A stretch of 50,343 bases of DNA from IMG/VR virus record IMGVR_UViG_3300020042_010754, positions 1-50,343 of that record; one strand, written 5' to 3'. How positions within the stretch are numbered: the stretch's first letter is position 1; every line of letters begins with the position of its first letter. Origin of the DNA: a virus (lineage: Duplodnaviria; Caudoviricetes). The translations under genes were made by a program, and so were the position numbers. Shown piece after piece: positions 6,635 through 36,915 of the stretch. The notes beneath the pieces were generated by a model. It ran no database searches and was not told the origin of the DNA. It was given only the letters and a program-made list of their open reading frames with translations.

Positions 6635-6674
6635 AACAAAACGCAATCCACTGCGTCAACATCGGAGAATACAA

Positions 6675-8040: not shown

Positions 8041-8050
8041 GTAATTATCA

Positions 8051-8672: not shown

Positions 8673-8681
8673 GAGAACCCA

Positions 8682-9518: not shown

Positions 9519-9525
9519 ATACTCA

Positions 9526-13048: not shown

Positions 13049-13049
13049 T

Positions 13050-13460: not shown

Positions 13461-13933
13461 TTTTCAATCACATCAAACAACTCAAGGCTGATGGTAAAAA
13501 GATTGGCATCACTTTCTCGACTTTTGATATGCTGCATGCAGGTCATATTGCCATGCTGTCAGAAGCCAAGAATCACTGCGATTATTTGATATGTGGCTTG
13601 CAAACTGATCCCACAATTGACCGACCCGATACCAAGAACAAGCCTATACAAAGCATTGTGGAACGACAGATTCAGTTAGCAGCTTGTCGCTATGTGGATG
13701 AAGTTGTGGTTTATCAAACTGAACAAGATCTTGTTGACCTTCTTTTGATTCTGCCACTTGATGTGCGTGTACTAGGTGTTGAATACGAAGACAAAGATTA
13801 CACTGGCCGAGACGAATGCTATCATCGTGGTATTGAATGTATCTTTAATCCTAGAGACCACTCATTCTCCAGCAGTAGCCTACGCAAACGAGTGGTTGCT
13901 GCCGAAAGTTACAAGGCATTGTCGCAGAAATGA
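13457..13933 (+). CDS. Cytidylyltransferase (TagD/RfaE2-like)
   Basis: TFDMLHAGH HIGH-like motif, ER...YVDEV, SSSSLR. Confidence 0.9.
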   Translation: MIFNHIKQLKADGKKIGITFSTFDMLHAGHIAMLSEAKNHCDYLICGLQTDPTIDRPDTKNKPIQSIVERQIQLAACRYVDEVVVYQTEQDLVDLLLILPLDVRVLGVEYEDKDYTGRDECYHRGIECIFNPRDHSFSSSSLRKRVVAAESYKALSQK

Positions 13934-15658: not shown

Positions 15659-16094
15659 ACCAGTGATAGCAGACAGGTACTGGATACTTAAAAAAGACGA
15701 CCGCAAGATTGGGCAGATTGAAGCTGACTCAGAGGGCATTGTTGTAAAAATTCAAAACACAGTACAACGATACAAGACTCTCAAGATGGCCGGTCGTGCT
15801 GCTGGTATTGAATTTGCAGCAGAAGAATCAATTACTCCACTGCAAGAACAACATGCATATGGTTATGACACCGGTGGTGTGGTCCACAATGCCATGTGGG
15901 ATGTGACTCATCGATTGCCGCTGTTCACACGAGACAATAAGTCAAAGTCCTGGTTTGCAGCTGGCTGGTATCGAGTGAAACAGCATCGCACCTGGAAAAC
16001 TGTGCAGAACCCTAAACTTATTACCTTGCAACGCTATGCATATCAAGGCCCTTTTCACACCAAGGAACAAGCAAATGACAAATCCGTTTCGTGA
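15639..16094 (+). CDS. Hypothetical protein
   Basis: AAGGAG RBS, 151 aa. Confidence 0.75.
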   Translation: MNSIVAKPVIADRYWILKKDDRKIGQIEADSEGIVVKIQNTVQRYKTLKMAGRAAGIEFAAEESITPLQEQHAYGYDTGGVVHNAMWDVTHRLPLFTRDNKSKSWFAAGWYRVKQHRTWKTVQNPKLITLQRYAYQGPFHTKEQANDKSVS

Positions 16095-16485
16095 CGACCT
16101 AATGGTGCAACAACAGATTGATGGACCGTGGCAACATATGGTAGGGGTGATCATGCTTAACCAAACCGGCCGCAAACCTGTTAAGATGGTATTACCAGAA
16201 TTCTTGTACTGGTTTCCCACTCCATGTGCTTTGCTCGAAGCAGATGAGAACTTTGTTAAAAGTATTATCAAACCCTTAGGAATGATGAATGTTCGTTACC
16301 AACGTCTAGTAAAAATGAGTCAAGATTTTTTGGCTTGGGACGGCAACGATGCTACAATGTTATATGGTATTGGCAAATATGGTTCAGATAGTTATGAAAT
16401 ATTTTTTAAGCATAACTATAGCATAGAACCTACAGATAAAGAATTGAAACGCTATTTAGAAGAGGAAGTTTATGAATCCGTTTAG
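16075..16485 (+). CDS. MBD4-like HhH-GPD DNA glycosylase domain protein
   Basis: PWQHMVGVIMLNQT, LYGIGKYGSDSYEIF, DKEL..YL. Confidence 0.8.
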   Translation: MTNPFRDDLMVQQQIDGPWQHMVGVIMLNQTGRKPVKMVLPEFLYWFPTPCALLEADENFVKSIIKPLGMMNVRYQRLVKMSQDFLAWDGNDATMLYGIGKYGSDSYEIFFKHNYSIEPTDKELKRYLEEEVYESV

Positions 16486-16840
16486 AGACCAAGAGAAATT
16501 CATGAAAGCCTGCAATCAAGATGTTAGCAAGTTTGATGAAAAACAATACTTGATGTATGTTAATCTTATTGACGAGGAACACCAAGAACTGCTAGAGGCT
16601 ATGCTAGCAGAAGATCGTGTAGAACAGCTGGATGCCTTGATTGACATCCTGGTGGTCACAATTGGTGCCATCCACTCCATGGGTGCAGATGGCGAAGGCG
16701 CCTGGAAAGAAGTTATGAGCACAAACTTTGCCAAGATTGATCGAGAAACTGGCAAGGTTCGCAAGCGTGAAGATGGTAAAGTACTAAAGCCAGTGGGCTG
16801 GAAATCTCCAGAACTGGCACAATTTATTAAAGGAGAATGA
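16472..16840 (+). CDS. MazG/PRA-PH-like NTP pyrophosphohydrolase
   Basis: EEHQE...DALID, TNFAK, REDGKVLKP. Confidence 0.85.
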   Translation: MNPFRDQEKFMKACNQDVSKFDEKQYLMYVNLIDEEHQELLEAMLAEDRVEQLDALIDILVVTIGAIHSMGADGEGAWKEVMSTNFAKIDRETGKVRKREDGKVLKPVGWKSPELAQFIKGE

Positions 16841-16841
16841 T

Positions 16842-17534
16842 ATGTTTGAAACAAGCTACACCAGCGGCATCACAGATTACCGCTCAGCAGAAGAAATCAA
16901 CTCAGCCATGGGCCGTGTGTATGGACACATGAGTCTTGCCGTTGTTACCAGCATGATTGTCAGCTACTTTGTGGGTACCACACCCGAGCTGCTGGAATTC
17001 TTTTTTACAGGTATCCTGAAGTGGATTGTGATCTTTGCTCCACTTGCAGCCATCTTTGGTATAAGTTATGTGCTGGGCACCAATCCCACGAAAGGAGTTG
17101 CTCAACTATGCTTGCACGGTTTTGCAGCCCTGATGGGTCTGAGCTTTGCAATGATCTTTGCGGTGTTCACCATGGGATCAATTGTTAGTGCTTTTATGGG
17201 TGCAGCCATCCTGTTTGCTGTCATGAGTGGCTATGGTTACTTTACCAAACGTAGTCTAGACAGCATGGGCAAGTTCATGATAGTTGGATTGATTGCAATT
17301 GTGATTGCCAGCATTGTAAACATCTTTATTGGCAGCACAGTCATGCAAATGGTTATTAGTGCCCTAGCTATCATTATCTTTATGGGATTGACTGCCTACG
17401 ACACACAACAGATCCGTGAAATGGTTTCAGTTGACACTAGCCCGTCAGTGGAAGTATCAGGTGCGTTGACCTTGTACATGGACTTTATCAACTTGTTCCT
17501 AAATCTACTACAGTTGTTTGGCGATAGAAAATAA
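16842..17534 (+). CDS. Bax inhibitor-1/YccA family membrane protein
   Basis: About 7 TM helices, YDTQQI, ALTLYMDFINLF. Confidence 0.92.
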   Translation: MFETSYTSGITDYRSAEEINSAMGRVYGHMSLAVVTSMIVSYFVGTTPELLEFFFTGILKWIVIFAPLAAIFGISYVLGTNPTKGVAQLCLHGFAALMGLSFAMIFAVFTMGSIVSAFMGAAILFAVMSGYGYFTKRSLDSMGKFMIVGLIAIVIASIVNIFIGSTVMQMVISALAIIIFMGLTAYDTQQIREMVSVDTSPSVEVSGALTLYMDFINLFLNLLQLFGDRK

Positions 17535-17543
17535 AGGAACAAC

Positions 17544-17753
17544 ATGAGCTTGCACATCAATCGGTTTGTTGATTCAATCAAGGCACACGAAAGTCGTGGT
17601 CAAAAAGACTTTACCATGCCCATGCGTGACGCCAAGGATCTACATGGTGATATCACCAAACTGTTGATGACCCTTGCTGCCATGCGAACTGTACCAGTTG
17701 AGAATTTAGTAACAGAGGTGGTTTTAGATGGTGGATCATTTAAAACCACATAG
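17544..17753 (+). CDS. Hypothetical protein
   Basis: AAGGA RBS. Confidence 0.75.
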   Translation: MSLHINRFVDSIKAHESRGQKDFTMPMRDAKDLHGDITKLLMTLAAMRTVPVENLVTEVVLDGGSFKTT

Positions 17754-17773
17754 TTAATGGCATAAATAATGCT

Positions 17774-18070
17774 ATGAGTAGACCACGGCCTCAGGTGCTA
17801 ATTGAGCACACCAACAAACAAACCTACAAGACCGAGCAAGTACTGGCTTCCGAAGGTGTGTGGGCAGTGTTCTACGACAACAGGCCCATCAATCTCAAAA
17901 CTGCAAACATGCTGACCCAGTACCCGGGGCCCAAGTATAAAAAAGTTAGTTTTTCAAATCCTGGTCACGCAAAAAACTTGGCCAAAAAACTAAACACACA
18001 GTTTAAAACAGACAAGTTCACAGTGGTGCTATTGACTCAGGGGGCGCAGATATACCCCGATGTTCGATAA
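17774..18070 (+). CDS. Conserved phage hypothetical protein (MSRPRP...KYKKVSFSNPGHA)
   Basis: Follows a CATAAATA late-type box at 17761. Confidence 0.8.
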   Translation: MSRPRPQVLIEHTNKQTYKTEQVLASEGVWAVFYDNRPINLKTANMLTQYPGPKYKKVSFSNPGHAKNLAKKLNTQFKTDKFTVVLLTQGAQIYPDVR

Positions 18071-18425
18071 ATCTGCATTAACCCAACAAATTCTACAAGG
18101 CTTGCCGCAAGACGATTGCCCCGTCTTTGACCAAGCATTTGCCTCTTGGTGGATGGATTCTCGCGAAGGCAAGGGCATGCGCCTGACCACAGCAGGTTAT
18201 CAAGCTATTGCCATCTTTGACATTGAGATGTATGTGTTTGATATTCCTGTGGGCATGGCTCTGCTGCCACGACACCTGCTGTTGTTGGATCGAAAACTGG
18301 ATTGTCCTTATTATCTCAAAACAGGAAAGAAATCGCAGATCACCTTGTTCGGTAGCGAGCAGGCCCTGATGATGACCATGTACGGGGATTTGAACCGGTT
18401 CATGCGGTATCTGGAACGCACCTAG
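18060..18425 (+). CDS. Hypothetical protein
   Basis: ORF in gene run. Confidence 0.75.
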   Translation: MFDKSALTQQILQGLPQDDCPVFDQAFASWWMDSREGKGMRLTTAGYQAIAIFDIEMYVFDIPVGMALLPRHLLLLDRKLDCPYYLKTGKKSQITLFGSEQALMMTMYGDLNRFMRYLERT

Positions 18426-18428
18426 CGG

Positions 18429-18457
18429 TTGACCTTTATTGCCCAAAATGCTATAAT
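18429..18457 (+). promoter_or_regulatory. sigma70 early-type promoter
   Basis: TTGACC-17-TATAAT with extended -10 TG. Confidence 0.8.
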
Positions 18458-18463
18458 ACGAGC

Positions 18464-18715
18464 ATGAACACAAAAACACCGCAGATTGTGAAAGCAAAAA
18501 TCCTGATTACCTCTATTGACAACATGAAATTGTTCCGGGGTCGACTGCCCACACGGCGCTGGGGTTTTTGCGAGATCGTGCGCAAGGTCACTATTGAAGC
18601 CTGCCCGTTTGGCATCTATGAAGATGGTAACTATGGCTATGTCAAGATCGACGGTAAAAAAGTCCGTGTGATCAACGGTCATGGTGGCGAAACATCGTTT
18701 GAAATCAGTCGATAA
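18464..18715 (+). CDS. Hypothetical protein, probably leaderless
   Basis: ATG 7 nt after the -10 box. Confidence 0.7.
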   Translation: MNTKTPQIVKAKILITSIDNMKLFRGRLPTRRWGFCEIVRKVTIEACPFGIYEDGNYGYVKIDGKKVRVINGHGGETSFEISR

Positions 18716-18720
18716 AACGG

Positions 18721-18749
18721 TTGACCAATATTGCCCGAAATGCTATAAT
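18721..18749 (+). promoter_or_regulatory. sigma70 early-type promoter
   Basis: TTGACC-17-TATAAT, near copy of the 18429 promoter. Confidence 0.8.
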
Positions 18750-18755
18750 ATACAC

Positions 18756-19100
18756 ATGGAAGCAAAAAACACAACCCGTAAAAAACGAGTAGATCGTACT
18801 CACATTGTATACATGCTCACAAGCGGTAGCGATTTCTACATCGGCGTTACTGCTAAGACTGCATCAACTGTGAAGAAGAGTGTAATGACTCGTTGCATGA
18901 AGCACCTGTATCGTTCACGTAGCGAAGACAAGAGCTGGACTTTATACGAAACTATGCGTGAACGTGGTACCAACGGTTTTACTGTAAATGTTCTTGCAGT
19001 GTTGCGTGGCAAAAGTCAGGCACATAAGTTAGAGCGTTGTATGATACAAGAACACCGACCTAACCTTAACACTGATGTTAGATTAGCCAACAGCATGTGA
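18756..19100 (+). CDS. Small GIY-YIG-like nuclease
   Basis: IVYML...FYIGVT, R...H, E...I...P.LN. Confidence 0.7.
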   Translation: MEAKNTTRKKRVDRTHIVYMLTSGSDFYIGVTAKTASTVKKSVMTRCMKHLYRSRSEDKSWTLYETMRERGTNGFTVNVLAVLRGKSQAHKLERCMIQEHRPNLNTDVRLANSM

Positions 19101-19145
19101 GTGTAAGTATTGCACCGGGCACCAAGTATACAAAAGCAAAAAGCC

Positions 19146-19607
19146 ATGCCTAAATGTTATCAATTGATTGGAGTGCCGGCCTCGGGTAAAAGCACTTGGA
19201 TTAAAAATCAAGACTGGCTGTTAGGGTCAACTGTAGTTTCTACAGATCCGTTTGTGGAAGACTATGCTAGAGTACAGGGCAAGACATATAGTGAAGTGTT
19301 TGCTGAATACATGCCCAGAGCCATTGACCTAATGATTGAACAAGTTGAATTCGCACGTGAGCACGGCCACACTGTGATCTGGGATCAAACCAGTGTTACT
19401 GTGGCTAGCCGTCGAAAAAAGTTTCGCATGCTGCCGGATTACAAGCATATTGCTGTGGTGTTTTGCACACCCAAACCTGTGGAACTTGCTGATAGACTGG
19501 CTAGTCGTCCGGGCAAAATAGTTCCAGAAGAAATAGTACAAGACATGATTGACCGATTTGAAATGCCCACACTAGAAGAGGGATTCCAGGAGATATGGCA
19601 TGTATAA
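19146..19607 (+). CDS. P-loop kinase (AAA_33 / polynucleotide-kinase-like)
   Basis: GVPASGKST, WDQT, R..R, PTLEEGF. Confidence 0.85.
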   Translation: MPKCYQLIGVPASGKSTWIKNQDWLLGSTVVSTDPFVEDYARVQGKTYSEVFAEYMPRAIDLMIEQVEFAREHGHTVIWDQTSVTVASRRKKFRMLPDYKHIAVVFCTPKPVELADRLASRPGKIVPEEIVQDMIDRFEMPTLEEGFQEIWHV

Positions 19608-19639
19608 TCTACACAGACTGTGTAGCCTGGTCAGTAGCG

Positions 19640-20134
19640 TTAGCGGCCGCAGCCTACCAATTTACAGTATGTGACCAATTCGTAGGTTCCCCATATGGTT
19701 CCTAACACCACTACTATTAGTAGTGTCACCAATAATACTGTTTCTACTAGATCTTCAACTTCTTTTTTGTGCCGCTCCGCTGCTTCTTTTTCACGACGGG
19801 TAGCATGTGCTGCATCCGCGTCCATGGCAGCAGACCTGGCTTTGATCTTGTTCCAAACGTCTATCTTGCCTGTTTGCATGAACAGAAATTGCAACTCTTT
19901 TTCAAACTGTACTGCTTGATCCAGGGCCATCTCAATTTGGATGGCTGTGCCCATGCTGGATTTTTTGCCACTGTTTCTAGATTCTACCATGGCCTTGGAT
20001 GCAGTGCTCTTGGCATCAAAGTACTTGCCCAGCACTGGCCCCAGGGACGCTACATCGTCCACAGTTTTAGATACTTTTTTAATTAATGCAACAGCAGCTT
20101 GTATGCCTGCTAGTGCGGTTAATGGATCAATCAT
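19640..20134 (-). CDS. Hypothetical protein with C-terminal TM helix
   Basis: 164-aa ORF starting MIDPLTALA. Confidence 0.75.
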   Translation of the reverse strand: MIDPLTALAGIQAAVALIKKVSKTVDDVASLGPVLGKYFDAKSTASKAMVESRNSGKKSSMGTAIQIEMALDQAVQFEKELQFLFMQTGKIDVWNKIKARSAAMDADAAHATRREKEAAERHKKEVEDLVETVLLVTLLIVVVLGTIWGTYELVTYCKLVGCGR

Positions 20135-24494: not shown

Positions 24495-24590
24495 AGTGAA
24501 ATTATTTATAAGTTACCACCAGTGGTCAAAAAGGAAACATCGTGCAATTTACAGAAATCATCAAAACGGCTACTTTGATGGCCTTTTTTC

Positions 24591-24619
24591 TTGACTTTTT
24601 TGTTGTAGGCATATATACT
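24591..24619 (+). promoter_or_regulatory. sigma70 promoter of attenuator leader 1
   Basis: TTGACT-17-TATACT. Confidence 0.75.
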
Positions 24620-24624
24620 ACACT

Positions 24625-24717
24625 ATGATGACGCAAATTGCACTCACACTCAATCTAATACCTACCAGCCTGGAGCTGGCCTATGAGAGCGATCGTCGGC
24701 GGGGTCTTTGCCTGTAA
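24625..24717 (+). CDS. Putative leader peptide 1 (MMTQIALTLNLIPTSLELAYESDRRRGLCL)
   Basis: Leaderless ATGATG at the predicted TSS; overlaps the antiterminator arm. Confidence 0.6.
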   Translation: MMTQIALTLNLIPTSLELAYESDRRRGLCL

Positions 24718-24741
24718 GTAAACTTATTACTTCACTCAAAG

Positions 24742-24766
24742 ACCCGCTAACTAGGCGGGTTTTTTT
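24742..24766 (+). terminator. Intrinsic terminator with competing antiterminator
   Basis: ACCCGC/GCGGGT + T run; GGGTCTTTG (24702) pairs with CAAAGACCC (24737). Confidence 0.85.
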
Positions 24767-24773
24767 ATGGCGG

Positions 24774-24902
24774 TTGACCCTTATTCAGTCTGGTGCTATA
24801 ATGCATGCAACAAAGAGGAGAGCAGCAGGATTTGCAAAGACCCTAGAACAAACTGGGGCATTTGCAAAACCGGTTGACCAGTATTGCACAAGATGTTATA
24901 CT
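24774..24902 (+). promoter_or_regulatory. Tandem sigma70 promoters for the RNA island
   Basis: TTGACC-17-TATAAT (24774) and TTGACC-17-TATACT (24874). Confidence 0.75.
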
Positions 24903-24993
24903 AGAGACTAGTTAGAAAGCAGCACAGTGCATCGACACAGTGCAGCAAGTTCGTTAAAAATTTGATTATGGTGTACTCAGATTCAGTTCTGAG

Positions 24994-25242
24994 CACTATA
25001 TGTAAACACATTAGGGTTACCAAGCCAGTAGGTGACCTAGCAATGGATTCCAGTTGACGGACTGGCATTGGCTAGGTGACACGAAAGATGGGCGTATCAG
25101 TGATGCAAATCACGAGTTACGGTAGTCACGCTGGAACAACTTGACCTGTAATGTGCTTGATAGACAAGTCCGTGGACGGCACGGTAGGGCAGGTTCAAAA
25201 CTGCGATCTCTATCAAACACCCCTGTGTGTTTTCATATAGTG
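24994..25242 (+). ncRNA. Conserved-stem spacer RNA, copy A (about 200-nt multi-stem cargo)
   Basis: CACTATATGTAAACACATTAGGG...CCCTGTGTGTTTTCATATAGTG. Confidence 0.7.
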
Positions 25243-25316
25243 GAGCATTCGTCTATCGGTTAGGACAGTGGGTTTTCAGTCCACTAAGAGCGGTTCGACT
25301 CCGCTATGCTCTACCA
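25242..25316 (+). tRNA. tRNA-Glu (TTC)
   Basis: Cloverleaf, CCA. Confidence 0.92.
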
Positions 25317-25322
25317 TGTTTA

Positions 25323-25408
25323 GGACAGTTGGCCGAGTGGTCGAAGGCGACGGACTGTAAATCCGTTCTGTAAAAAGCGCAGTGGTTCAAATCCATTACT
25401 GTCCACCA
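25323..25408 (+). tRNA. tRNA-Tyr (GTA)
   Basis: Cloverleaf, long variable arm, CCA. Confidence 0.95.
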
Positions 25409-25413
25409 ATTTT

Positions 25414-25549
25414 GAAATCAAGTGGAAAGCAAGAGCCACAAAGTAAACAGTAGGCGACTTAGGTATCACGGTCGTCTTTGCAGTGATCAACTGCGTCAGC
25501 CCCAAAAAGGTTGAGAAACACTGGGGTAAGAGTCCCAAAGTGATTGCCA
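25414..25549 (+). ncRNA. tRNA-like multi-hairpin RNA ending in GCCA
   Basis: Five hairpins, including anticodon-like CAGCC-CCAAAAA-GGTTG and T-like TGGG-GTAAGAGT-CCCA. Confidence 0.5.
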
Positions 25550-25624
25550 TATACGAACACATTGAGAGACACATCCGCCGTAAAACGTGGAAGCATGGTG
25601 GTTATCCAGTGTGTTCTTATATGG
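25547..25624 (+). ncRNA. Conserved-stem spacer RNA, copy B
   Basis: CCATATACGAACACATTG...CAGTGTGTTCTTATATGG. Confidence 0.7.
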
Positions 25625-25794
25625 TATATCAGTTGATGTAGCGGGTCATACACGGGACTGGCGAAAGCATATTGAGGCTCGGAATCTCGGACGCTAACAA
25701 CACATCAGCACAAAGGTAGTTCGAACTACTCGGCGTGGTCGCAGTCTGTACTACGGACTTTCCTGCTCGATCCAGGGTGCTGATGGATATACCA
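25623..25794 (+). ncRNA. Unknown structured RNA closed by GGTATATC/GATATACC
   Basis: Terminal stem, T-loop-like GGTAGTTCGAACTACT, alternative internal pairings. Confidence 0.55.
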
Positions 25795-25914
25795 TATAGA
25801 AACACATTAATTGAAAAGCGTCCATGGACTAGAATGACCATCTAGTTAGATGCTTGGATAGGGATGTAAAAAGCCCCTGCTCGTCACAGTTGTCCTAGTG
25901 TGTTTCTATATGGT
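25791..25914 (+). ncRNA. Conserved-stem spacer RNA, copy C
   Basis: ACCATATAGAAACACATTA...TAGTGTGTTTCTATATGGT. Confidence 0.72.
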
Positions 25915-25961
25915 AATGTCATCGGCCGGTGGCATCCATTCTGGGGAGTAATTACCCTCAG

Positions 25962-26039
25962 GAACTCGCGGTCTTCTAGTGGTAAGAAAGCCTCGTTTAA
26001 GGGGCGAACGCAGGTTCGATTCCTGCCCGCAATGAGTTT
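25962..26039 (+). ncRNA. tRNA-like element without CCA (pseudo-tRNA or decoy)
   Basis: D arm TTCT-AGTGGTA-AGAA, 6-nt anticodon loop GTTTAA, perfect T arm GCAGG-TTCGATT-CCTGC, bulged acceptor. Confidence 0.6.
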
Positions 26040-26124
26040 GCTATATAAAAACACATTAGAAGCCTTCGTGACTGTAGGCAAGCAGGTCTCTAAGTCGTTT
26101 CCGACTAGTGTGTTTCTATATGGT
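26040..26124 (+). ncRNA. Conserved-stem spacer RNA, copy D
   Basis: GCTATATAAAAACACATTAG...CTAGTGTGTTTCTATATGGT. Confidence 0.72.
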
Positions 26125-26313
26125 AAGAATCCCGTTACTACTTTCGTTAAAGTAGCGTTTGACTAGCGATAGAGGTCCGGTGGCAGAAGACCGTTAGTGA
26201 GGAGAACCCTCTGAATCTGATAGGCAGTTCCCTCTGCACACAGACGTTAGAATAAAAGGGATGGACAGAGTAACTGCTCAATTAAGGGCTGGCGTGGAAC
26301 CCAGTAGCTTATC
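26122..26313 (+). ncRNA. Unknown structured RNA
   Basis: GGTAAG/CTTATC, ATCCC/GGGAT, CTACTTT/AAAGTAG and further hairpins; no credible ORF. Confidence 0.5.
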
Positions 26314-26320
26314 CTAATTT

Positions 26321-26396
26321 GGTCTTAAAGTGTTCATGGACGCACGACGGCTTGTCACGCCGTAAGAGTGGGGATCGTTACCCCCTAAGACCGCCA
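26321..26396 (+). tRNA. tRNA-Asp (GTC)
   Basis: Cloverleaf, atypical T loop ATCGTTA, CCA. Confidence 0.9.
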
Positions 26397-26460
26397 TATA
26401 AAACACATTAGTTCCCCGTAGGGATAATTGACAACAGGTTCATGCTAGTGTGTTTCTATG
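26395..26460 (+). ncRNA. Conserved-stem spacer RNA, copy E
   Basis: CATATAAAACACATTAG...CTAGTGTGTTTCTATG, exactly between tRNA-Asp and tRNA-Leu. Confidence 0.72.
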
Positions 26461-26535
26461 CCCCGGTGACGGAATGGTATACGTGTTGGTCTTAGAAACC
26501 AAATTCTGGGAGTTCGAGTCTCCCCTGGGGCACCA
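26460..26535 (+). tRNA. tRNA-Leu (TAG), short variable loop
   Basis: Cloverleaf, loop CTTAGAA, CCA. Confidence 0.9.
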
Positions 26536-26538
26536 AGT

Positions 26539-26758
26539 TTTGTTAGAGTGTTAGCAAGAGAAAGTCACGCTGTCTAGGTTTCTTCGAAGGACCAAAGCAG
26601 TAGAAGGTGATGGGTTCGACACCCACCCTGCGGGGAACTGCAGGGGTCCATTGAGGCGACTAAACTGGACCGGTATCCCAAGTAACTTACCGACTCCCGC
26701 TCGAGCTTGTTAATTCGGGTGAATGGCAGCAATAACGTGGTGCTGCTACTTTAACAAA
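26539..26758 (+). ncRNA. Unknown multi-stem RNA
   Basis: TTTGTTAGAGT/ACTTTAACAAA closing stem; internal GGGTTCGACACCC, GGTCCA/TGGACC, CGGTA/TACCG. Confidence 0.6.
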
Positions 26759-26769
26759 TTCAATATTTT

Positions 26770-26929
26770 ATTTTTATAGTCAAGCATCAATAAAGGTATC
26801 GTGACGGGACGCTGCCACTATGCGGGCCTAACTGTGCGAGGAACAGGTCCTGATATAACTGCTATTCGCTTGTCAGAGGAAGCACCTTTGTTGACAAATT
26901 GGCATCTCTTGATGCTTGACTATAAAAAT
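26770..26929 (+). ncRNA. Unknown RNA closed by a perfect 21-bp stem
   Basis: ATTTTTATAGTCAAGCATCAA/TTGATGCTTGACTATAAAAAT. Confidence 0.65.
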
Positions 26930-26933
26930 TTTT

Positions 26934-27023
26934 GCCAGCGAGACTTGGAGTCCGAGGGGTCTTATATGCCCTTTCCGCCAGATTAGCGGCTTTGAGAGAG
27001 TTCGATTCTCTCCGCTGGTACCA
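26934..27023 (+). tRNA. Atypical tRNA-Ile (TAT) with long variable arm and reduced D arm
   Basis: GCCAGCG/CGCTGGT, loop CTTATAT, T arm GAGAG-TTCGATT-CTCTC, ACCA. Confidence 0.8.
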
Positions 27024-27026
27024 GTT

Positions 27027-27197
27027 TAAGCAGATCATGTGGCGGAAAAACTCATTGACGATGGGCCCAACTGCCAGGGACAACGACACAATCCTGAACC
27101 GCTGACGTTGAAAAATACGAGACTGCTAGTCACAGTCGACTCATGTTCGGGAAGGTGGCAACACCTTTAAACGCAGGGCAGTCACATGATCAGCTTA
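27027..27197 (+). ncRNA. Unknown structured RNA
   Basis: TAAGC-A-GATCATGTGGC/GTCACATGATC-A-GCTTA closing stem; CCTGAAC/GTTCGGG. Confidence 0.55.
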
Positions 27198-27208
27198 TTC
27201 AAACTCAG

Positions 27209-27248
27209 TTGACAACAACCCAACGTTGTTGTACACTACACATAAATA
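27209..27248 (+). promoter_or_regulatory. sigma70 promoter plus CATAAATA late box
   Basis: TTGACA-17-TACACT. Confidence 0.7.
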
Positions 27249-27254
27249 ACATAT

Positions 27255-27330
27255 CGCGGGAAGGGTCCGGTCACCGGCAGGGTCTCATAAGCCTTTGCAA
27301 TCCTTGGTTCAAATCCAAGTCCCGCAACCA
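27255..27330 (+). tRNA. tRNA-fMet-like (CAT)
   Basis: C1:A72 mismatch, CGCGGG start, TTCAAAT T loop, reduced D arm. Confidence 0.82.
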
Positions 27331-27339
27331 AACACATCC

Positions 27340-27960
27340 ATGGTACCCAAAGTAATCAGAATTACACCAGTAGAATCCTATTTTTCAATTACCTGGGCAA
27401 TAACCAACAAGTGCAATTATGATTGCATGTATTGCCCTGCTGCATTGCATGCAGGGGATCAAGTGTACTCACTGAGCAAGATGCAATCCTACTGGTTGGA
27501 TATTTTTGCCAAGACTCAAGATAAAAATTTAAAATACAAAATTTCGTTCAGTGGCGGCGAAGTCACTACCAACAAAGACTTTGCGCCATTTGTTGCATGG
27601 TTGCGTGAAAACTACCATGATCGCATACATTCTATATTGTTAACTACCAATGGTAGTGCCAGCGTGGCCTACTACATGAAGTTGTACCACAGTGTAGACA
27701 ACATAAGTTTTAGTTTTCACAGTGAACATGCTGATGAAAAACTATTTTATGATAAAATGGTCAAGATCAAGGAAGCCATTGATCCTAAAAATTTCATTCA
27801 TGTAAACATCATGGACGAATACTGGATCAAGGATCGTATTCCTTTGTATACTAAAATTCTAACTGACCATGAGATCAGTCATAGCATTAATTCAATAAAT
27901 TATGCCTTAGGAACACGGACTGTTCCTATTCTTAAAGGTCGGGCTAATCTTGAAATTTGA
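27340..27960 (+). CDS. Radical SAM protein
   Basis: CNYDCMYC, SGGE, TTNGS, SFH. Confidence 0.88.
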   Translation: MVPKVIRITPVESYFSITWAITNKCNYDCMYCPAALHAGDQVYSLSKMQSYWLDIFAKTQDKNLKYKISFSGGEVTTNKDFAPFVAWLRENYHDRIHSILLTTNGSASVAYYMKLYHSVDNISFSFHSEHADEKLFYDKMVKIKEAIDPKNFIHVNIMDEYWIKDRIPLYTKILTDHEISHSINSINYALGTRTVPILKGRANLEI

Positions 27961-28258
27961 AAACCATCACAACAACAATTGCACAATTTTGCTAGACAAC
28001 GGTGACCAGTATCAGATATATGCCAATTGGTTGCACAATCACAATCTAGATAATTTTAAAGGCTGGCAATGTGCTGCAGGAATCACACGAATCTCTATTG
28101 ATCCTACTGGACAAGTGTTCAGTGGCGAATGCGAAAATCACAATTTAGGTAACTTGAATACCAATTGGCAGTTGTTGGAAGAATCAGTTGCTGTTTGCAA
28201 CCGAGACCGGTGCACTGGTTGCACTGACGACTTACTTGCCAAAAAAATTAAATTATGA
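27950..28258 (+). CDS. Stand-alone SPASM/twitch-like Fe-S domain protein
   Basis: CAAG...I...GQV..GEC....LGNL...C...RCTGCTDD. Confidence 0.7.
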   Translation: MKFENHHNNNCTILLDNGDQYQIYANWLHNHNLDNFKGWQCAAGITRISIDPTGQVFSGECENHNLGNLNTNWQLLEESVAVCNRDRCTGCTDDLLAKKIKL

Positions 28259-28352
28259 ACTTGCTTGGCAGCTCAACCGTAGACGAGCTGAGATCCGGGG
28301 GTTTGGAATTTTTTTGTCGGTGGCATAAATAACTTGCAACAAAATTTAGTGG

Positions 28353-28381
28353 TTGACAACAATCACTAAATACCTTATAAT
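28353..28381 (+). promoter_or_regulatory. Consensus sigma70 promoter of attenuator leader 2
   Basis: TTGACA-17-TATAAT with CTAAATA inside. Confidence 0.85.
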
Positions 28382-28387
28382 ACAAAC

Positions 28388-28519
28388 ATGATGAACACAA
28401 ACACTTTTAACCGCATGCATTCCGTACCGACCTTGGCACAGCCCTGGTCACGTGCCTTTGCCTGCGGCAAAAGTATTACAGGGAATCATAGGGTCCGAGA
28501 AGGAATCAGTTGCGCCTAA
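28388..28519 (+). CDS. Putative leader peptide 2 (MMNTNTFNRMHSVPTLAQPWSRAFACGKSITGNHRVREGISCA)
   Basis: Leaderless ATGATG at the predicted TSS; overlaps the antiterminator. Confidence 0.6.
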   Translation: MMNTNTFNRMHSVPTLAQPWSRAFACGKSITGNHRVREGISCA

Positions 28520-28544
28520 CAGCAGTAACTTACAAACTTCAAGG

Positions 28545-28577
28545 ACCCTGGAACTAAAAACTCCAGGGTTTTTCTTT
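28545..28577 (+). terminator. Intrinsic terminator with competing antiterminator
   Basis: ACCCTGGA/TCCAGGGT + TTTTCTTT; AGGGTCC (28490) pairs with GGACCCT (28543). Confidence 0.85.
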
Positions 28578-28585
28578 ATGTGCAA

Positions 28586-28720
28586 TGAGTAACGAGGACT
28601 CAGCCAGCACAATAAACCAGGCAAACGGGCGGACAGGACACATGAACGTGTGGCGATAACACACTAGTAAGACTCCTGGTCGGGGTATCAACCCCGTCAT
28701 GTTCAGTAGCGATACTGGGC
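28586..28720 (+). ncRNA. Unknown structured RNA after attenuator 2
   Basis: GAGT/ACTC, CAGGA/TCCTG or ACCAGG/CCTGGT, GTGT/ACAC, CGGGG/CCCCG, TTCAGT/ACTGGG stems. Confidence 0.5.
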
Positions 28721-28780
28721 ATTCTAAAACATATCAAGCTGGCCTGGGTTGCAATACCGCAGATGGTGTGTTTTAGAATG
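28720..28780 (+). ncRNA. Conserved-stem spacer RNA, copy F (divergent)
   Basis: CATTCTAAAACATAT...GTGTGTTTTAGAATG with compensatory changes. Confidence 0.62.
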
Positions 28781-28853
28781 TATCCATAGTGTAATGGCAG
28801 CATCGCGGTCTCCAAAACCGTCAGTCTAGGTTCAAGTCCTAGTGGGTACGCCA
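28780..28853 (+). tRNA. tRNA-Trp (CCA)
   Basis: Cloverleaf, loop CTCCAAA. Confidence 0.93.
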
Positions 28854-28858
28854 AATAT

Positions 28859-28935
28859 CGGTCCTTAACTCAATTGAATAGAGTGCCAGTCTTCGAAACT
28901 GGAAGTTGGGAGTTTGAATCTCTCAGGGCCGGCCA
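28859..28935 (+). tRNA. tRNA-Arg (TCG)
   Basis: Cloverleaf, loop CTTCGAA. Confidence 0.92.
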
Positions 28936-28942
28936 AATTATC

Positions 28943-29016
28943 GGGGGATTAGTATAATGGGATTACGGCAGCTTTGCAAGCTGTTTATGGGAGTTCGATC
29001 CTCCCATCCTCCACCA
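28943..29016 (+). tRNA. tRNA-Ala (TGC)
   Basis: Cloverleaf, G3:U70. Confidence 0.95.
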
Positions 29017-29023
29017 AATTTAC

Positions 29024-29097
29024 TGGGGGTTAGTGTAGCGGTAACACTACAGACTTTGACTCTGTCATCACTGGTTCGATCCCAGTACCCTCTGCCA
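29024..29097 (+). tRNA. tRNA-Gln (TTG)
   Basis: Cloverleaf, loop CTTTGAC. Confidence 0.93.
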
Positions 29098-29104
29098 GAC
29101 AAAT

Positions 29105-29178
29105 ACCACGTTAGCTCAAAGGTAGAGCAATCGGCTGATAACCGATAGACACAGGATCGTTACCTGTACATGGTACCA
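29105..29178 (+). tRNA. tRNA-Ile (GAT)
   Basis: Cloverleaf, atypical T loop ATCGTTA. Confidence 0.9.
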
Positions 29179-29184
29179 AATTGT

Positions 29185-29214
29185 GTTGACACTGTGTGTC
29201 AACTGCTATATAAT
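29185..29214 (+). promoter_or_regulatory. sigma70 promoter overlapped by a palindrome
   Basis: TTGACA-17-TATAAT; GTTGACAC-TGT-GTGTCAAC. Confidence 0.75.
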
Positions 29215-29230
29215 AGCATTGTTAGTTTCA

Positions 29231-29320
29231 GGAACGGTCCCATAATGGTATTGGAGCGGATTGCTAATCCGTCGAGTGGTGAAAGCCGCTTTAAGAGTTC
29301 GAGTCTCTTTCGTTCCGCCA
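29231..29320 (+). tRNA. tRNA-Ser (GCT)
   Basis: Cloverleaf, long variable arm. Confidence 0.94.
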
Positions 29321-29328
29321 AGTTTTAT

Positions 29329-29404
29329 TCCTCAGTAGCACAGCGGTAGTTGCACTTGACTGTTAATCAAGGTGTCGGTAGTTCGATCCTACCCTGAGGA
29401 GCCA
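29329..29404 (+). tRNA. tRNA-Asn (GTT)
   Basis: Cloverleaf. Confidence 0.94.
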
Positions 29405-29410
29405 ATTTTT

Positions 29411-29484
29411 GCCCTACTAGTACAATGGCAGTACACTGGTTTTGTAATCCTGTGATGGCAGTTCGATTCTGTCGTGGGGCACCA
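29411..29484 (+). tRNA. tRNA-Thr (TGT)
   Basis: Cloverleaf; two U:U mismatches in the anticodon stem. Confidence 0.85.
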
Positions 29485-29487
29485 TTT

Positions 29488-30252
29488 TTATCCCGCAGTA
29501 GTGCGTTGATTATTGTGCATTAATAATTTTTCAACAATTACGGCACCCAGATCAAATCTTGTACCTCCAGAGAATGAATAGTTTGTTTGATCTTCGTGAT
29601 GATTTTTATGCAAACCTTCCCCGTAAGATATAAAATTAAATACTGAGTTCAAGTTCCTGGCTTCAACAACTTCATTCTTTTTGTGGGTGTTATAGTTCAC
29701 AGCAGTAATAATTATCCAGCTATACGCAAAATTTACTGGAGAAAAAAACAATGCTGTTTTCAAGTCAATCAACGCCAATATTATATTGAAAGCGTAGAAC
29801 AACTTCCAGTAGTGTTTGCTAACAAATACAGCTTCTTTATTTTTGAAAAAATCCTTGGGAATCTTGATTCCCGAATTGATAGTATACCTGCCCAGCCACA
29901 AACTAAACCAACTATGATACATAGGGCTGTGTGGATCATTTTTTGTGTCAGTATGTGCATGATGCAAACGATGTGCAATCACTATTTGTAATGGACTGCC
30001 GTGACCGTTCATTACCATGCCAGTAAGCATGAGATATTTTCCAAAAATACTGGGCTTAAAACTGTTGTGACAAAGCCACCGGTGAGATCCAATGTGCGCT
30101 ATACCGCCCATCAAAGACCCAATGACTCTGATTAGGATAAATCCTAGCAGTGTTCCGCCTGCCGAAAAATAATAAGGTATTGAAAAAACAGCAATGGCGC
30201 TGAATACTAGAACTTTCAAAGTTACAGTGTCGGTGTAGGATAATTTGAACAT
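29488..30252 (-). CDS. Membrane fatty-acid desaturase
   Basis: HRWLCH, HRLHH, GEGLHKNHH. Confidence 0.9.
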   Translation of the reverse strand: MFKLSYTDTVTLKVLVFSAIAVFSIPYYFSAGGTLLGFILIRVIGSLMGGIAHIGSHRWLCHNSFKPSIFGKYLMLTGMVMNGHGSPLQIVIAHRLHHAHTDTKNDPHSPMYHSWFSLWLGRYTINSGIKIPKDFFKNKEAVFVSKHYWKLFYAFNIILALIDLKTALFFSPVNFAYSWIIITAVNYNTHKKNEVVEARNLNSVFNFISYGEGLHKNHHEDQTNYSFSGGTRFDLGAVIVEKLLMHNNQRTTAG

Positions 30253-30298
30253 AACTGTATTTAATCAATGTTATTGACTCAATATTGTTAATCAACAG

Positions 30299-30327
30299 TT
30301 GACAACATTCTGAAATTGTTGTACAAT
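30299..30327 (+). promoter_or_regulatory. sigma70 promoter of the Lys tRNA group
   Basis: TTGACA-17-TACAAT. Confidence 0.8.
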
Positions 30328-30352
30328 ACAAACTTAAACAAAAAGGTACTAT

Positions 30353-30376
30353 ATGAAGCGACCAGCTAAACTGTAG
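30353..30376 (+). CDS. Putative mini leader peptide MKRPAKL
   Basis: AAAGGT RBS; AAG and AAA Lys codons; hairpin starts at the stop codon. Confidence 0.45.
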   Translation: MKRPAKL

Positions 30377-30436
30377 TGTCAATCTAGATCCCATGTAGGT
30401 CCGGGTTGGCACGTGAAAGACAATTTTACATATCAA

Positions 30437-30511
30437 CCCTCTAAGATGTTAAGGCAGCATGCCGGACTCTTAATCCGTGACGTCCGAGTTCAAATCTCGG
30501 TGGAGGGACCA
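30437..30511 (+). tRNA. tRNA-Lys (CTT)
   Basis: Cloverleaf, loop CTCTTAA. Confidence 0.9.
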
Positions 30512-30515
30512 CAAT

Positions 30516-30589
30516 GGGATCGTAACTTAAAAGTAAAGTAGCTGGCTTTTAACCAGTAAAAGAAGGGGCAGTACCTTCCGGTCCTACCA
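30516..30589 (+). tRNA. tRNA-Lys (TTT), atypical D and T loops
   Basis: Loop CTTTTAA; T loop GGCAGTA; no GG in D loop. Confidence 0.85.
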
Positions 30590-30664
30590 TAGATAAACAC
30601 ATTGGGATTAAATTCTGGTCACCCCAGCGCATAAGAGGTTGCGTACAGTGTGTTTTTCTATGGT
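30586..30664 (+). ncRNA. Conserved-stem spacer RNA, copy G
   Basis: ACCATAGATAAACACATTG...CAGTGTGTTTTTCTATGGT between tRNA-Lys and tRNA-His. Confidence 0.7.
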
Positions 30665-30738
30665 GTAGTTAGTGTCAGCGGTTAGCACTACGGATTGTGA
30701 TTCCGTCAGCATGGATTCGAATTCCATACTATACCCCA
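30662..30738 (+). tRNA. tRNA-His (GTG)
   Basis: Cloverleaf, G-1:C73. Confidence 0.93.
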
Positions 30739-30744
30739 GAATCA

Positions 30745-30819
30745 GGTTGTGTGGCGTAGACGGATGCGCACCGGCTTCATAAGCCGAGGAGGAAGGATCG
30801 ATACCTTCCACAACCACCA
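30745..30819 (+). tRNA. tRNA-Met (CAT), elongator-like
   Basis: Cloverleaf, T loop ATCGATA. Confidence 0.88.
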
Positions 30820-30998
30820 GTTAAATATTTTTAATGAAAGTCATTGCTGTTTTGATGTTGTTGAAAAACTTCATGGTCAATTTGAAATTGTCAATGTCAA
30901 ACACAAGAATATAAAAAGTGTGTTCTTTGCTCATGGACAAGTGGATTAATAATCCAGTCTTGGTGATAGCATTGTAAATATACATGAACGTATTTAAT

Positions 30999-31072
30999 GC
31001 GGGGTTCGTATAGTGGTAATACCTTAGCCTTCCAAGCTAAAGCGAGGAGTTCGATTCTCCTACCCCGCTCCA
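30999..31072 (+). tRNA. tRNA-Gly (TCC)
   Basis: Cloverleaf, U73. Confidence 0.95.
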
Positions 31073-31156: not shown

Positions 31157-31279
31157 TTTGTAGCCATAGCCCGGAGCTAGGGTAAAGGGTGTTGCGGGGA
31201 TTGCATGCGCTGCCTGTATCATGTGAACCGATAAAGATCGTAGCGCAACTTAATCAGTTTTTGTTCGGCCTGCTACAAA
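31157..31279 (+). ncRNA. Unknown rod-like RNA with central bubble
   Basis: TTTGTAGC/GCTACAAA outer stem, GTTGCG/CGCAAC inner stem. Confidence 0.5.
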
Positions 31280-31288
31280 TTCAATTTT

Positions 31289-36297: not shown

Positions 36298-36386
36298 CTG
36301 ATCAAGAATATAAAATTGGTTTAAAAATATCAGTAATTGCTGTGGGCTTGTACCTGTTACTAGTACTTGTATGCCATACTATTTAG
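36294..36386 (+). CDS. Small single-TM protein (30 aa)
   Basis: ATGA overlap; MTDQEYKIGLKISVIAVGLYLLLVLVCHTI. Confidence 0.45.
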   Translation: MTDQEYKIGLKISVIAVGLYLLLVLVCHTI

Positions 36387-36387
36387 A

Positions 36388-36416
36388 TTGACAACAAAAT
36401 CAAATAAATATATAAT
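36388..36416 (+). promoter_or_regulatory. Consensus promoter of tmRNA
   Basis: TTGACA-17-TATAAT with ATAAATA inside. Confidence 0.85.
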
Positions 36417-36420
36417 GTAA

Positions 36421-36848
36421 GTTATTGCTGTATGAAGCAAAGAGAAAAGTGTTCTGGACGGGGGTGCGAATCCCCCCAGGTCCACCAAAAGTATTGTGAA
36501 CTGAAACAAGTAATGAACCCGAACTGTGTACAGGTAGAGGTGTAGTGAACAAAAGTAGGTGGCACAGGCTAGTACAACGGAAGAGGTGTTAAACCCGTAG
36601 ATTAAGTTCCTACGCTCTCGCTCAACCGATGCCAGTAGATCGTACCTACTATACTTTTGATGGGCCTGACCTAGATTCGACAGGGCAACAAGTAAATTAG
36701 TGGACAGCTCGGCAATGTAGAAGCCGTTAGGACAGGGGTGACCCGGTCGTAGACACAAAAAAAGTAAAAGCAAACGACTCACAGTTCGCATTAGCAGCCT
36801 AACAGCCGCTTAGGGTAGTTATACCTCGTAACAGAAAATAGCAATAGG
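36421..36848 (+). ncRNA. ssrA: Circularly permuted two-piece tmRNA, tag ANDSQFALAA
   Basis: Acceptor piece with T arm ends CAGGTCCACCA (36487). Coding piece starts GGGCCTGA..GATTCGAC (36662) with G3:U70. Tag ORF 36770-36802. Confidence 0.92.
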
Positions 36849-36872
36849 CTCTTCGGAGCCTATTTTTTTTTA
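36846..36872 (+). terminator. Intrinsic terminator
   Basis: TAGGCTC-TTCG-GAGCCTA + T run. Confidence 0.92.
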
Positions 36873-36915
36873 TTCAAGATACATCATATAAATACTTGCC
36901 TAATAGGAGAATAAC

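Follow-up and report, generated by a model that had tools for sequence, protein, structure and literature searches.

A recurrent stem framing exchangeable RNA inserts in phage tRNA arrays, with a predicted RNase III-type processing site

One stem of 17-19 bp is present seven times in the tRNA array of this large phage, each time around a different insert. Stems of the same family are carried by large uncultured phages between their tRNA genes, where they are widespread and amount to 390 distinct elements with about 186 insert clusters. We regard it as reasonably probable that the stem serves as a frame for interchangeable RNA cassettes, likely cut by the host RNase III, and that the inserts move from slot to slot and would be set free as stable small RNAs.

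A pattern scan of positions 24501-31000 of the window (the whole analysed stretch of 50,343 nucleotides) returned seven stems, and none was found elsewhere on the + strand of the window. After dinucleotide shuffling (n=100), the same scan gave no stem in 97 cases and one stem in three. Folding reproduced the coordinates and the closing helix of all seven copies listed in the initial annotation, with z-scores from -2.3 to -5.8 for copies 2-7 (copy 1 was left out). The enclosed segments, with lengths of 207, 40, 84, 45, 33, 25 and 39 nt for copies 1-7, fail to align mutually, in agreement with the unrelated cargo described earlier. A start at the CCA of a tRNA could be retained for two of the seven copies (copy 5 at tRNA-Asp, copy 7 at tRNA-Lys) and not for copies 2 and 3, which start on a non-tRNA CCA; the reported ending on base +1 of the following tRNA was found in four of seven (Glu, Leu, Trp and His). 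The features are as follows.

24774, 27209, 28353, 29186 and 30299: sigma-70-type promoter matches (consensus match only).
24874..24902, + strand: sigma-70-type promoter match upstream of copy 1 (consensus match only).
24994..25242, + strand: copy 1, stem around a conserved RNA family of ~210 nt, reaching the first base (G+1) of tRNA-Glu; predicted cuts after 25002 and 25235.
25547..25624, + strand: copy 2, 40-nt insert, starting at the CCA end of an RNA that is not a tRNA; predicted cuts after 25553 and 25619.
25623..25794, + strand: RNA that separates copies 2 and 3 and overlaps the arms of both stems at its ends.
25791..25914, + strand: copy 3, 84-nt insert, pair 8 being G-C; predicted cuts after 25798 and 25908.
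26040..26124, + strand: copy 4, 45-nt insert; predicted cuts after 26047 and 26118.
26394..26460, + strand: copy 5, 33-nt insert, from the tRNA-Asp CCA to G+1 of tRNA-Leu(UAG); predicted cuts after 26399 and 26458.
28719..28780, + strand: copy 6, 25-nt insert, divergent stem, reaching the first base (G+1) of tRNA-Trp; predicted cuts after 28725 and 28776.
30516..30589, + strand: tRNA read from its sequence as Lys(UUU), 48.9 bits in Rfam, missed by ARAGORN.
30586..30664, + strand: copy 7, 39-nt insert, from the tRNA-Lys(UUU) CCA to G-1/G+1 of tRNA-His; predicted cuts after 30593 and 30658.
36485..36661, + strand: intervening segment of the window's two-piece tmRNA.

From its base upward, the stem has seven lower base pairs, then pair 8, which is weak or mismatched, and above it an upper helix of 9-11 bp. 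Among 389 family stems, pair 18 is paired in 334 and pair 8 is mostly a mismatch (283/389) and is G-C in 40/389, copy 3 included. Copy 1 carries U·U at pair 17, and the lower stem of copy 5 is damaged and shortened. The RNA between copies 2 and 3, which has matches in 11 loci, can also pair its own ends in an alternative 21-nt inverted repeat. The U-G wobble from which an RNA structure had been proposed is present at pair 16 of all seven copies; alone it does not settle the strand, since the A·C mismatch that is common at pair 8 would read as G·U on the opposite strand. The proposed + strand could nevertheless be assigned, since pair 16 alternates between U·G, C-G and U-A whereas pair 8 alternates between mismatches, since the + strand fold is the more stable one in 7/7 copies, and since the tRNAs and the sigma-70-type promoters are co-oriented. 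For an unbiased set, loci were picked via a neighbouring protein and 1527 tRNA CCA ends were scored for a helix with at least 15/17 pairs; 60 of these ends open such a helix, compared to 13/7635 control offsets, giving 45 distinct helices, the majority of which belong to the stem family.

The upper half of the stem agrees with five of the six published determinants of E. coli RNase III, including the U·G and the weakness of the pair where the cut is predicted. In the consulted part of PMC1540722, the distal box is given as UA and UG and the proximal box as GC at pb1, AU/UA at pb2 and AU at pb3, GC/CG being excluded at pb4, beside the cut; the register of the distal box was inferred from residue numbers and text in that part and from a sentence in PMC8708148. 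In the family consensus, pair 17 is U-A, pair 16 is U·G, and pairs 10 and 9 are A-U. The helix continues for 11 bp or more beyond the predicted cut, pairs 8-18 being formed, with 8 in some cases only weak. At the distal box (10th and 9th pair from the cut), the window copies show U·G in 7/7 and U-A in 5/7, and the unbiased set shows U-A in 42/45. The pb2, pb3 and pb4 positions agree in 15/15 stems that were selected by their insert (copy-1 relatives, chosen without regard to the stem): A-U occupies pairs 9 and 10 in all 15, G-C is never found at pair 8, and pairs 11-13 are variable. The determinant that fails is G-C at pb1, pair 11 being A-U in 7/7 window copies and G-C in 7/45 helices of the unbiased set. 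Individual departures are G-C at pb3 in copy 2 and, in copy 3, G-C at pb4, a catalytic antideterminant in E. coli, while U·G at pair 16 is seen in only 6/15 copy-1 relatives and 24/45 of the unbiased set, although E. coli is strict at that pair. A score of 5/6 is reached by about 6% of pair-shuffled helices and by only 36/74 family helices, and the match derives from one ancestral stem. Other long helices of the arrays fit the E. coli determinants in 4/79 cases against about 7% by chance, so that not every closing helix is an RNase III-type site. Where the initial annotation had left the choice between a shared processing handle and a protein-binding one, these comparisons point to processing, with an RNase III-type site as the best fit and with predicted cleavage.

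As far as described in the consulted parts of PMC1540722 and PMC8708148, the RNase III hairpins of T7 early RNA (R1.1) are likewise intergenic helices in a polycistronic phage transcript; the host enzyme cuts them, as is predicted for the stem. R1.1 resembles the stem in a helix of about 11 bp beyond the cut, in the UA/UG of the distal box, in the A-U of the proximal box and in a weak cut-side pair. Unlike the T7 hairpins, the stem lies between tRNAs, borrows their CCA and first bases, recurs within an array (as many as seven times) and encloses a structured insert of 25-210 nt that can be exchanged, where the T7 hairpin has a tetraloop; its pb1 is usually A-U and its cleavage is predicted.

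E. coli RNase III sites have no strong common consensus according to the consulted parts of PMC5371410 and PMC8708148, and the strong conservation of the stem, also at non-determinant pairs, therefore needs another cause, either recombination or a protein. Such conservation beyond the reported needs of the E. coli enzyme would suit a stem that stays uncut and serves as a dock for a sequence-specific phage or host protein, or as a clamp shielding the precursor CCA, chiefly of tRNA-Lys(UUU). The G-C at pair 8 in about 10% of stems fits this alternative too, as does the start on a CCA in 234/390 elements, among which tRNA-Lys(UUU) is the commonest anchor with 142. We nevertheless judge it quite improbable, as 130/390 elements have no called tRNA on either flank, the upper half alone is found in tmRNA spacers that must be removed, and RNA junctions lie at the base of the upper helix. 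In addition, neither Ro60 (TROVE) nor a dsRNA-binding domain was found in five phage records searched for each.

The tmRNA spacers concerned are intervening segments of two-piece tmRNAs (RF04321, RF01850), which, in the consulted part of PMC9004378, are likewise removed between a CCA end and the next G+1. In related phages, 14 distinct spacers were read from 24 calls, and some of them carry the upper stem of the family: the exact one in L415, another variant in L154, and in L382 a stem variant that even encloses a shared insert, of cluster 23. The L450 spacer has a 3-nt loop and no insert, and processing therefore does not require an insert. The seven window copies differ from these spacers in that their neighbours are tRNAs or other RNAs. 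In the window itself, the tmRNA spacer (36485..36661) has a different closing helix, short and AU-rich, which follows the CCA and encloses an unrelated insert of ~150 nt; it follows the same logic as the stem family, yet it is no family copy in this genome.

The RNA junctions come from two metatranscriptome contigs of two studies, in which the 3' arm runs straight into the 5' arm, 1-3 nt from the predicted cuts. Neither junction occurs in any collected DNA locus; each is represented by one contig, from a relative, and may be a library artefact. If the stem is a cassette frame cut by RNase III, the host sigma-70 polymerase would transcribe the tRNA array into long precursors, as the promoter matches suggest. 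Sequence and covariation show that the arms pair, and in many cases they recruit for this the CCA in front and the opening bases of the tRNA that follows. Host RNase III would bind the upper helix and is predicted to cut 5' of pair 8 and two bases beyond its partner, cleavage of the E. coli type leaving 2-nt 3' overhangs. The upstream tRNA would keep a 4-nt trailer and the following tRNA a 3-nt leader, to be finished by exonucleases and RNase P. The cuts would free the insert closed by about 11 bp and could help to free the tRNAs. The inserts also change slots, and many of them are selected for their folds; once freed, they might, at a guess, act as protein decoys or sponges. Ten related large phage records (0/5 and 0/5) gave no RNase III domain. 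RtcB was not found in the phage records searched; PF09414 matches are present in 3/5 records, within frames of ~460 aa that may be DNA ligases.

Behind tRNA-Lys genes that are at least 95% identical, the inserts differ in 166/180 pairs, and 29/65 clusters follow two or more tRNA types. Homologs of the window inserts were seen in 1 locus for copy 2, in 32 loci following different tRNAs for copy 4, in 14 for copy 5 and in 3 for copy 7; the copy 3 insert recurs in L005 with a divergent stem, and the search across the collected loci returned no homolog for copy 6. Conservation of cargo at orthologous positions, which had been proposed as a check, is not found by position and is found as families that move between positions. 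Sequence comparison shows that the inserts swap slots, and homologous recombination between the near-identical arms probably moves them. Movement among slots would equally be produced by mobile or integron-like cassettes, with the arms, which are inverted repeats in DNA, as terminal repeats or recombination sites and the RNA fold as incidental. This explanation is very improbable in our view: the variation preserves G·U-tolerant pairing on the tRNA strand, the elements adjoin CCA and base +1 exactly, and no recombinase is annotated in the window. A cassette driven by a retroelement or reverse transcriptase was rejected, reverse transcriptase being found in 0/5 near-complete records.

Every insert homolog found sits within the closing stem, 452 being recognized by motif and 10 more by flanking divergent inverted repeats. 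Two-sided (compensatory) changes affect 73/353 predicted insert pairs, with 36/353 broken in some member, and in the copy-1 insert family (15 distinct members) they affect 27/55 consensus pairs. The inserts overall have modest structure (mean z -0.53), and for the larger families the predicted pairs show that the insert folds themselves are under selection. RNA contigs from three runs contain relatives of the copy-1 insert at a depth of 2400-3400; short inserts have little or no contig cover, which is uninformative at that RNA size. T-loop-like motifs, one of them in the copy 1 insert, occur in 13/185 clusters against 0.7 expected. Confinement to the stem, compensatory change, T-loop enrichment and RNA depth all argue against the view that the stem is RNase III punctuation for tRNA maturation only, with inserts that are disposable filler or hitch-hiking fragments folding compactly. 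That view, which we consider unlikely, could draw on the 110/186 clusters that are singletons without a shared motif, on the insert-free L450 spacer, and on the near-identical inserts in different slots, which could be recent transfers.

In Rfam searches of the window and 80 loci, covering about 110/186 clusters, no insert came at or near the gathering score, in keeping with the earlier statement that no family could be recognised. The repertoire of distinct structured inserts that was suggested at the same time now stands at about 186 clusters, with a Chao1 estimate of about 350. The suggested anti-CRISPR RNAs, antitoxin mimics and guides were not borne out, as the scans of about 110/186 clusters gave neither CRISPR-repeat nor ToxI matches: a CRISPR repeat mimic was rejected for want of a CRISPR-DR family match in the window and 80 loci (Rfam families only), and a ToxI-like type III antitoxin mimic for want of an Rfam ToxI match in the same set. 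Pseudoknot potential, examined for the ToxI comparison, exceeded shuffles only slightly, with 16/150 against 8.9 at one threshold and no excess at two others. One pattern match, cluster 160 (L276), does not belong to the family, since it lies next to a SAM riboswitch in sequence of bacterial origin; it was omitted from the T-loop and fold statistics and is included in the total of 186. Y RNAs (YrlA, RF02553), as presented in the consulted part of PMC4201824, likewise have ends that form a long stem and a body that sometimes carries tRNA-like loops. The phage inserts differ in showing no enrichment of the Ro60 motif GNCGAAN0-1G (8/186 clusters; shuffle mean 5.0, maximum 11), in having sub-threshold RF02553 matches only, all overlapping tRNAs, and in the absence of a Ro60 gene from the five records; Y RNA was rejected as a candidate.

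The most likely role of the inserts, in our view, is that of protein decoys or sponges, some copying tRNA elbows, whose diversity is kept because hosts differ; this is a guess that we hold to be rather doubtful, and it is suggested mainly by the T-loop-like motifs. A broader reading, put forward tentatively, is that hundreds of small effector RNAs form a library whose members plug into recombining RNase III-cut frames and, in some cases as circles, would act as decoys against RNA-binding proteins of host defence or regulation. Such a library would be the RNA counterpart of an integron cassette array, any folded RNA being slotted behind a highly expressed tRNA.

The tRNA cluster of phage T4 encodes small stable RNAs, species 1 and 2, which are non-tRNA molecules with no known function, co-transcribed and processed with the tRNAs. 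They are a fixed pair, in contrast to the large slot-swapping repertoire in one frame described here. Spacers of phage tRNA genes are usually ignored, and in these phages they are the site of a large repertoire of structured RNAs with fast turnover. Should the frame be an RNase III site, this would explain how the array is cut and give exact ends for each small RNA, and the role of non-tRNA RNAs in phage tRNA clusters could be tested on defined molecules. Should the inserts be decoys, they would form an RNA-based counter-defence library. Topic searches of the literature returned no description of this kind or of the family, and a full-text motif search gave unrelated papers only; for PMC10690425 the search covered four supplementary files, without a motif match, and its remaining large or archived files may contain these RNAs.

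Among the 30 of 224 matches listed for cultured phages, tRNA genes alone were matched, and plasmids gave no match to the family. Bacterial and archaeal genomes gave 18 pattern matches, 17 of which look like chance; the remaining one is genuine and is part of a tRNA array carried by a MAG contig of 1.5 kb.

The seven conserved stems claimed in the initial annotation are real in the window: a stem scan found seven in 24501-31000, while shuffling of the sequence gave none in 97 of 100 cases and one in the other three. The same scan returned no further stem on the + strand of the rest of the window. Each copy consists of a frame (the constant closing stem) and an insert (the variable RNA enclosed by it):

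24994-25242, + strand, copy 1
25547-25624, + strand, copy 2
25791-25914, + strand, copy 3
26040-26124, + strand, copy 4
26394-26460, + strand, copy 5
28719-28780, + strand, copy 6
30586-30664, + strand, copy 7

From the stem base upward, the frame has a lower helix of 7 bp, a pair 8 that is weak or mismatched, and an upper helix of 9-11 bp (AAACACAUU/AGUGUGUUU); pair 16 is U·G in every copy. An RNA structure on the + strand, earlier deduced from this wobble and compensatory changes, was borne out, but the wobble by itself is insufficient to set the strand, which was assigned from the variation pattern, folding energies and tRNA orientation. Several copies had also been said to start at the CCA of one tRNA and/or to end at base 1 of the next. 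The 5' side coincides with a tRNA CCA in two copies (Asp and Lys-UUU) and with the CCA of a non-tRNA RNA in two more; four copies terminate at base +1 of the next tRNA.

Pattern scans yielded at least 121 and at least 120 loci in viral contigs and at least 122 in metagenomes. The 363 loci listed were analysed together with the window, and a tRNA call was present in 345 of these 364. They contain 390 distinct elements, 234 of which start on a tRNA CCA (tRNA-Lys(UUU) in 142 cases) and 115 of which extend up to where the next tRNA begins. For each of five large records, the best stem matches are concentrated in one or two short regions. Among 185,579 prokaryote genomes, one of 18 pattern matches was genuine; it lies (L364:651-715) within an array of nine tRNAs, and the contig, 1.5 kb long and assigned to a Planktophila MAG, is probably phage DNA. 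Because the search pattern fixes the stem core, two pattern-independent sets were built. In the first (80 protein-selected loci and part of the window), a helix of at least 15/17 pairs starts at 60 of 1527 tRNA CCA ends versus 13 of 7635 control offsets. Of the 45 distinct CCA-starting helices, most belong to the stem family. The second comprises 15 copy-1 relatives recovered through the insert; in it the search motif continues to bias positions 13-17 of the left arm. Among the unbiased members, about half have C-G or U-A in place of U·G at pair 16.

The minimal E. coli RNase III substrate, according to excerpts of PMC1540722, is a helix of 11 bp that contains a distal box (UA, UG) and a proximal box (GC, AU/UA, AU, AU/UA; pb1 to pb4, here pairs 11, 10, 9 and 8), in which GC/CG adjoining the cut blocks catalysis; excerpts of PMC5371410 and PMC8708148 describe a strict consensus as unnecessary. 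Counting upward from the cut, the 10th and 9th pairs were taken as the distal box, using residue numbers and a statement in the excerpts of PMC1540722 and PMC8708148, respectively. In that register the family reads U-A, U·G, followed by A-U at pb1, pb2 and pb3; A-U at pb1 misfits the E. coli GC, and pb4 is mismatched in 283 of 389 elements. All 15 members of the insert-selected set have A-U at pb2 and pb3 and none has G-C at pb4, with pairs 11-13 variable. Several points speak against an RNase III site: five of the six determinants occur together in about 6% of shuffled helices, the family represents a single ancestral stem, pair 16 often departs from U·G as described above, and E. coli sites do without a strict consensus. 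The proposal of a shared processing handle was supported, with an RNase III-type site as the best fit. The stem would work like the RNase III hairpins of T7, but since pb1 misfits and cleavage is only predicted, it is not classed outright as an E. coli-type site. The predicted cuts give an upstream CCA-UAUA and a downstream 3-nt leader. Such ends suit trimming by exonucleases and the action of RNase P. Ten phage records, eight of them at least 90% complete, yielded no RNase III, and the cutting enzyme would therefore be the host's.

With somewhat better than even confidence, we propose that host RNase III would cut the frame, helping tRNA maturation and setting a closed insert RNA free, and that inserts would be swapped by recombination between the arms. 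A stem that stays uncut, as a protein dock or a clamp on the CCA, seems quite unlikely to us; the frequent starts on CCA favour it, and two metatranscriptome contigs speak against it. In run X1, a contig of 257 nt (depth 182) passes from the 3' arm belonging to a copy-1 relative straight into a 5' arm and the beginning of an insert; a contig of X2 (depth 1022) carries the same junction type. Both junctions lack the lower helix and fall 1-3 nt short of perfect ligation of the predicted ends; neither is present in the DNA loci compared, and the genomic relatives each occur once and retain the lower helix. This suggests, as a hint and not as proof, that RNA ends lie at the predicted place and were joined in the cell or during library making.

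The spacer of a two-piece tmRNA is a segment that must be removed. Among 14 distinct spacers from 24 calls in related phages, that of L415 contains the exact family upper stem, that of L382 an upper-stem variant enclosing an insert of cluster 23 (clusters group similar inserts) and that of L154 a different variant, while most others form unrelated AU-rich helices. In these spacers the upper half is present and the lower half is not, which is what one would expect if a single box set is enough. The two-piece tmRNA of the window (36374-36893) has an unusually long intervening segment of 177 nt; the spacers of relatives range from 32 to >200 nt.

The 390 elements form 186 insert clusters including 110 singletons (Chao1 about 350); within this count, at least one member is false, one element is mis-joined and the copy-1 family is split. 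Conservation of the cargo at orthologous positions fails by slot, inserts being different in 166 of 180 pairs behind tRNA-Lys genes that share at least 95% identity, but is seen as insert families across tRNAs, with 29 of 65 multi-member clusters behind at least two tRNA types. Recurrence is seen for the inserts of copy 4 (32 loci) and copy 5 (14 loci), which have several tRNAs upstream and differing lower stems. A cassette acting at the DNA level could likewise move between tRNAs, but we regard it as very improbable. That the stem is a punctuation mark and the inserts disposable filler is unlikely in our judgement, though less so than an uncut stem; the many singletons favour it, and the two-sided pair changes speak against it, as does the closing stem that surrounds the insert homologs in every case. 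Two-sided change affects 73 of 353 predicted insert pairs within clusters (36 are broken in some member), a figure leaning optimistic as the structures were predicted from those very alignments, and 27 of 55 pairs in the copy-1 family. This family appears in RNA contigs of three runs at depth 2400-3400, although contig depth reflects expression poorly. Of 185 clusters, 13 contain a T-loop-like motif versus 0.7 expected. The initial annotation had matched the stems to no recognised family, and Rfam scans over about 110 clusters returned no match for the inserts; its suggestion of anti-CRISPR RNAs or antitoxin mimics was not supported, as these scans turned up neither a CRISPR repeat nor a type III antitoxin. 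Our committed guess, a tentative one, is that the released inserts may act as decoys. An identity of the stem family with Y RNA was rejected, since five phage records lacked a Ro60 gene and the GNCGAAN0-1G motif stood in 8 of 186 clusters versus 5.0 in shuffles. Motif and topic searches of the literature, including part of the PMC10690425 supplement, gave no description of the family.

Several other RNAs lie in the array. The RNA at 26540-26765 (about 225 nt, structured, with a T-arm-like hairpin; no Rfam match) has matches in 75 loci, with 23 members aligned, and no RNA contigs from this region are deeper than those of its relatives (6,000-20,000 in three runs). At 26126-26318 a conserved RNA of about 195 nt (30 loci, no Rfam match) reaches contig depths of 1,200-6,600 in three runs, and its upstream tRNA varies between phages. 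At 26770-26929 a conserved 118-nt insert (34 loci) is closed by a perfect helix of 21 bp that differs in sequence type from the family stem; in relatives, other long helices take its place. The T4 RNAs known as species 1 and 2 are a precedent for non-tRNA RNAs within phage tRNA clusters. Further features are:

25412-25546, conserved non-tRNA RNA between tRNAs, matches in 5 loci, not in Rfam
25915-25964, conserved non-tRNA RNA between tRNAs, matches in 15 loci, not in Rfam
27026-27180, conserved non-tRNA RNA between tRNAs, matches in 29 loci, not in Rfam
28590-28718, conserved non-tRNA RNA between tRNAs, matches in 16 loci, not in Rfam
31157-31282, conserved non-tRNA RNA between tRNAs, matches in 3 loci, not in Rfam
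25965-26034, atypical tRNA, anticodon loop unreadable, CCA not encoded
30516-30589, atypical tRNA Lys(UUU), not called by ARAGORN

ARAGORN identified 30 tRNA genes and the two-piece tmRNA in the window, a virus record of 50 kb, which also encodes radical SAM, queuosine-pathway, desaturase and solute-binding genes. Relatives located via a nearby RNase H-like gene attain lengths of 286-364 kb, and the window is therefore a fragment of a large phage. The betaproteobacterial model scored best for the tmRNA, which points to a putative betaproteobacterial host. Consensus matches to sigma-70-type promoters precede the tRNA blocks. The array is preceded by a short ORF and a terminator-like hairpin (24627-24768; Trp-leader score weak), and a similar short ORF with hairpin and T-run (28391-28580) lies downstream of the promoter at 28353.
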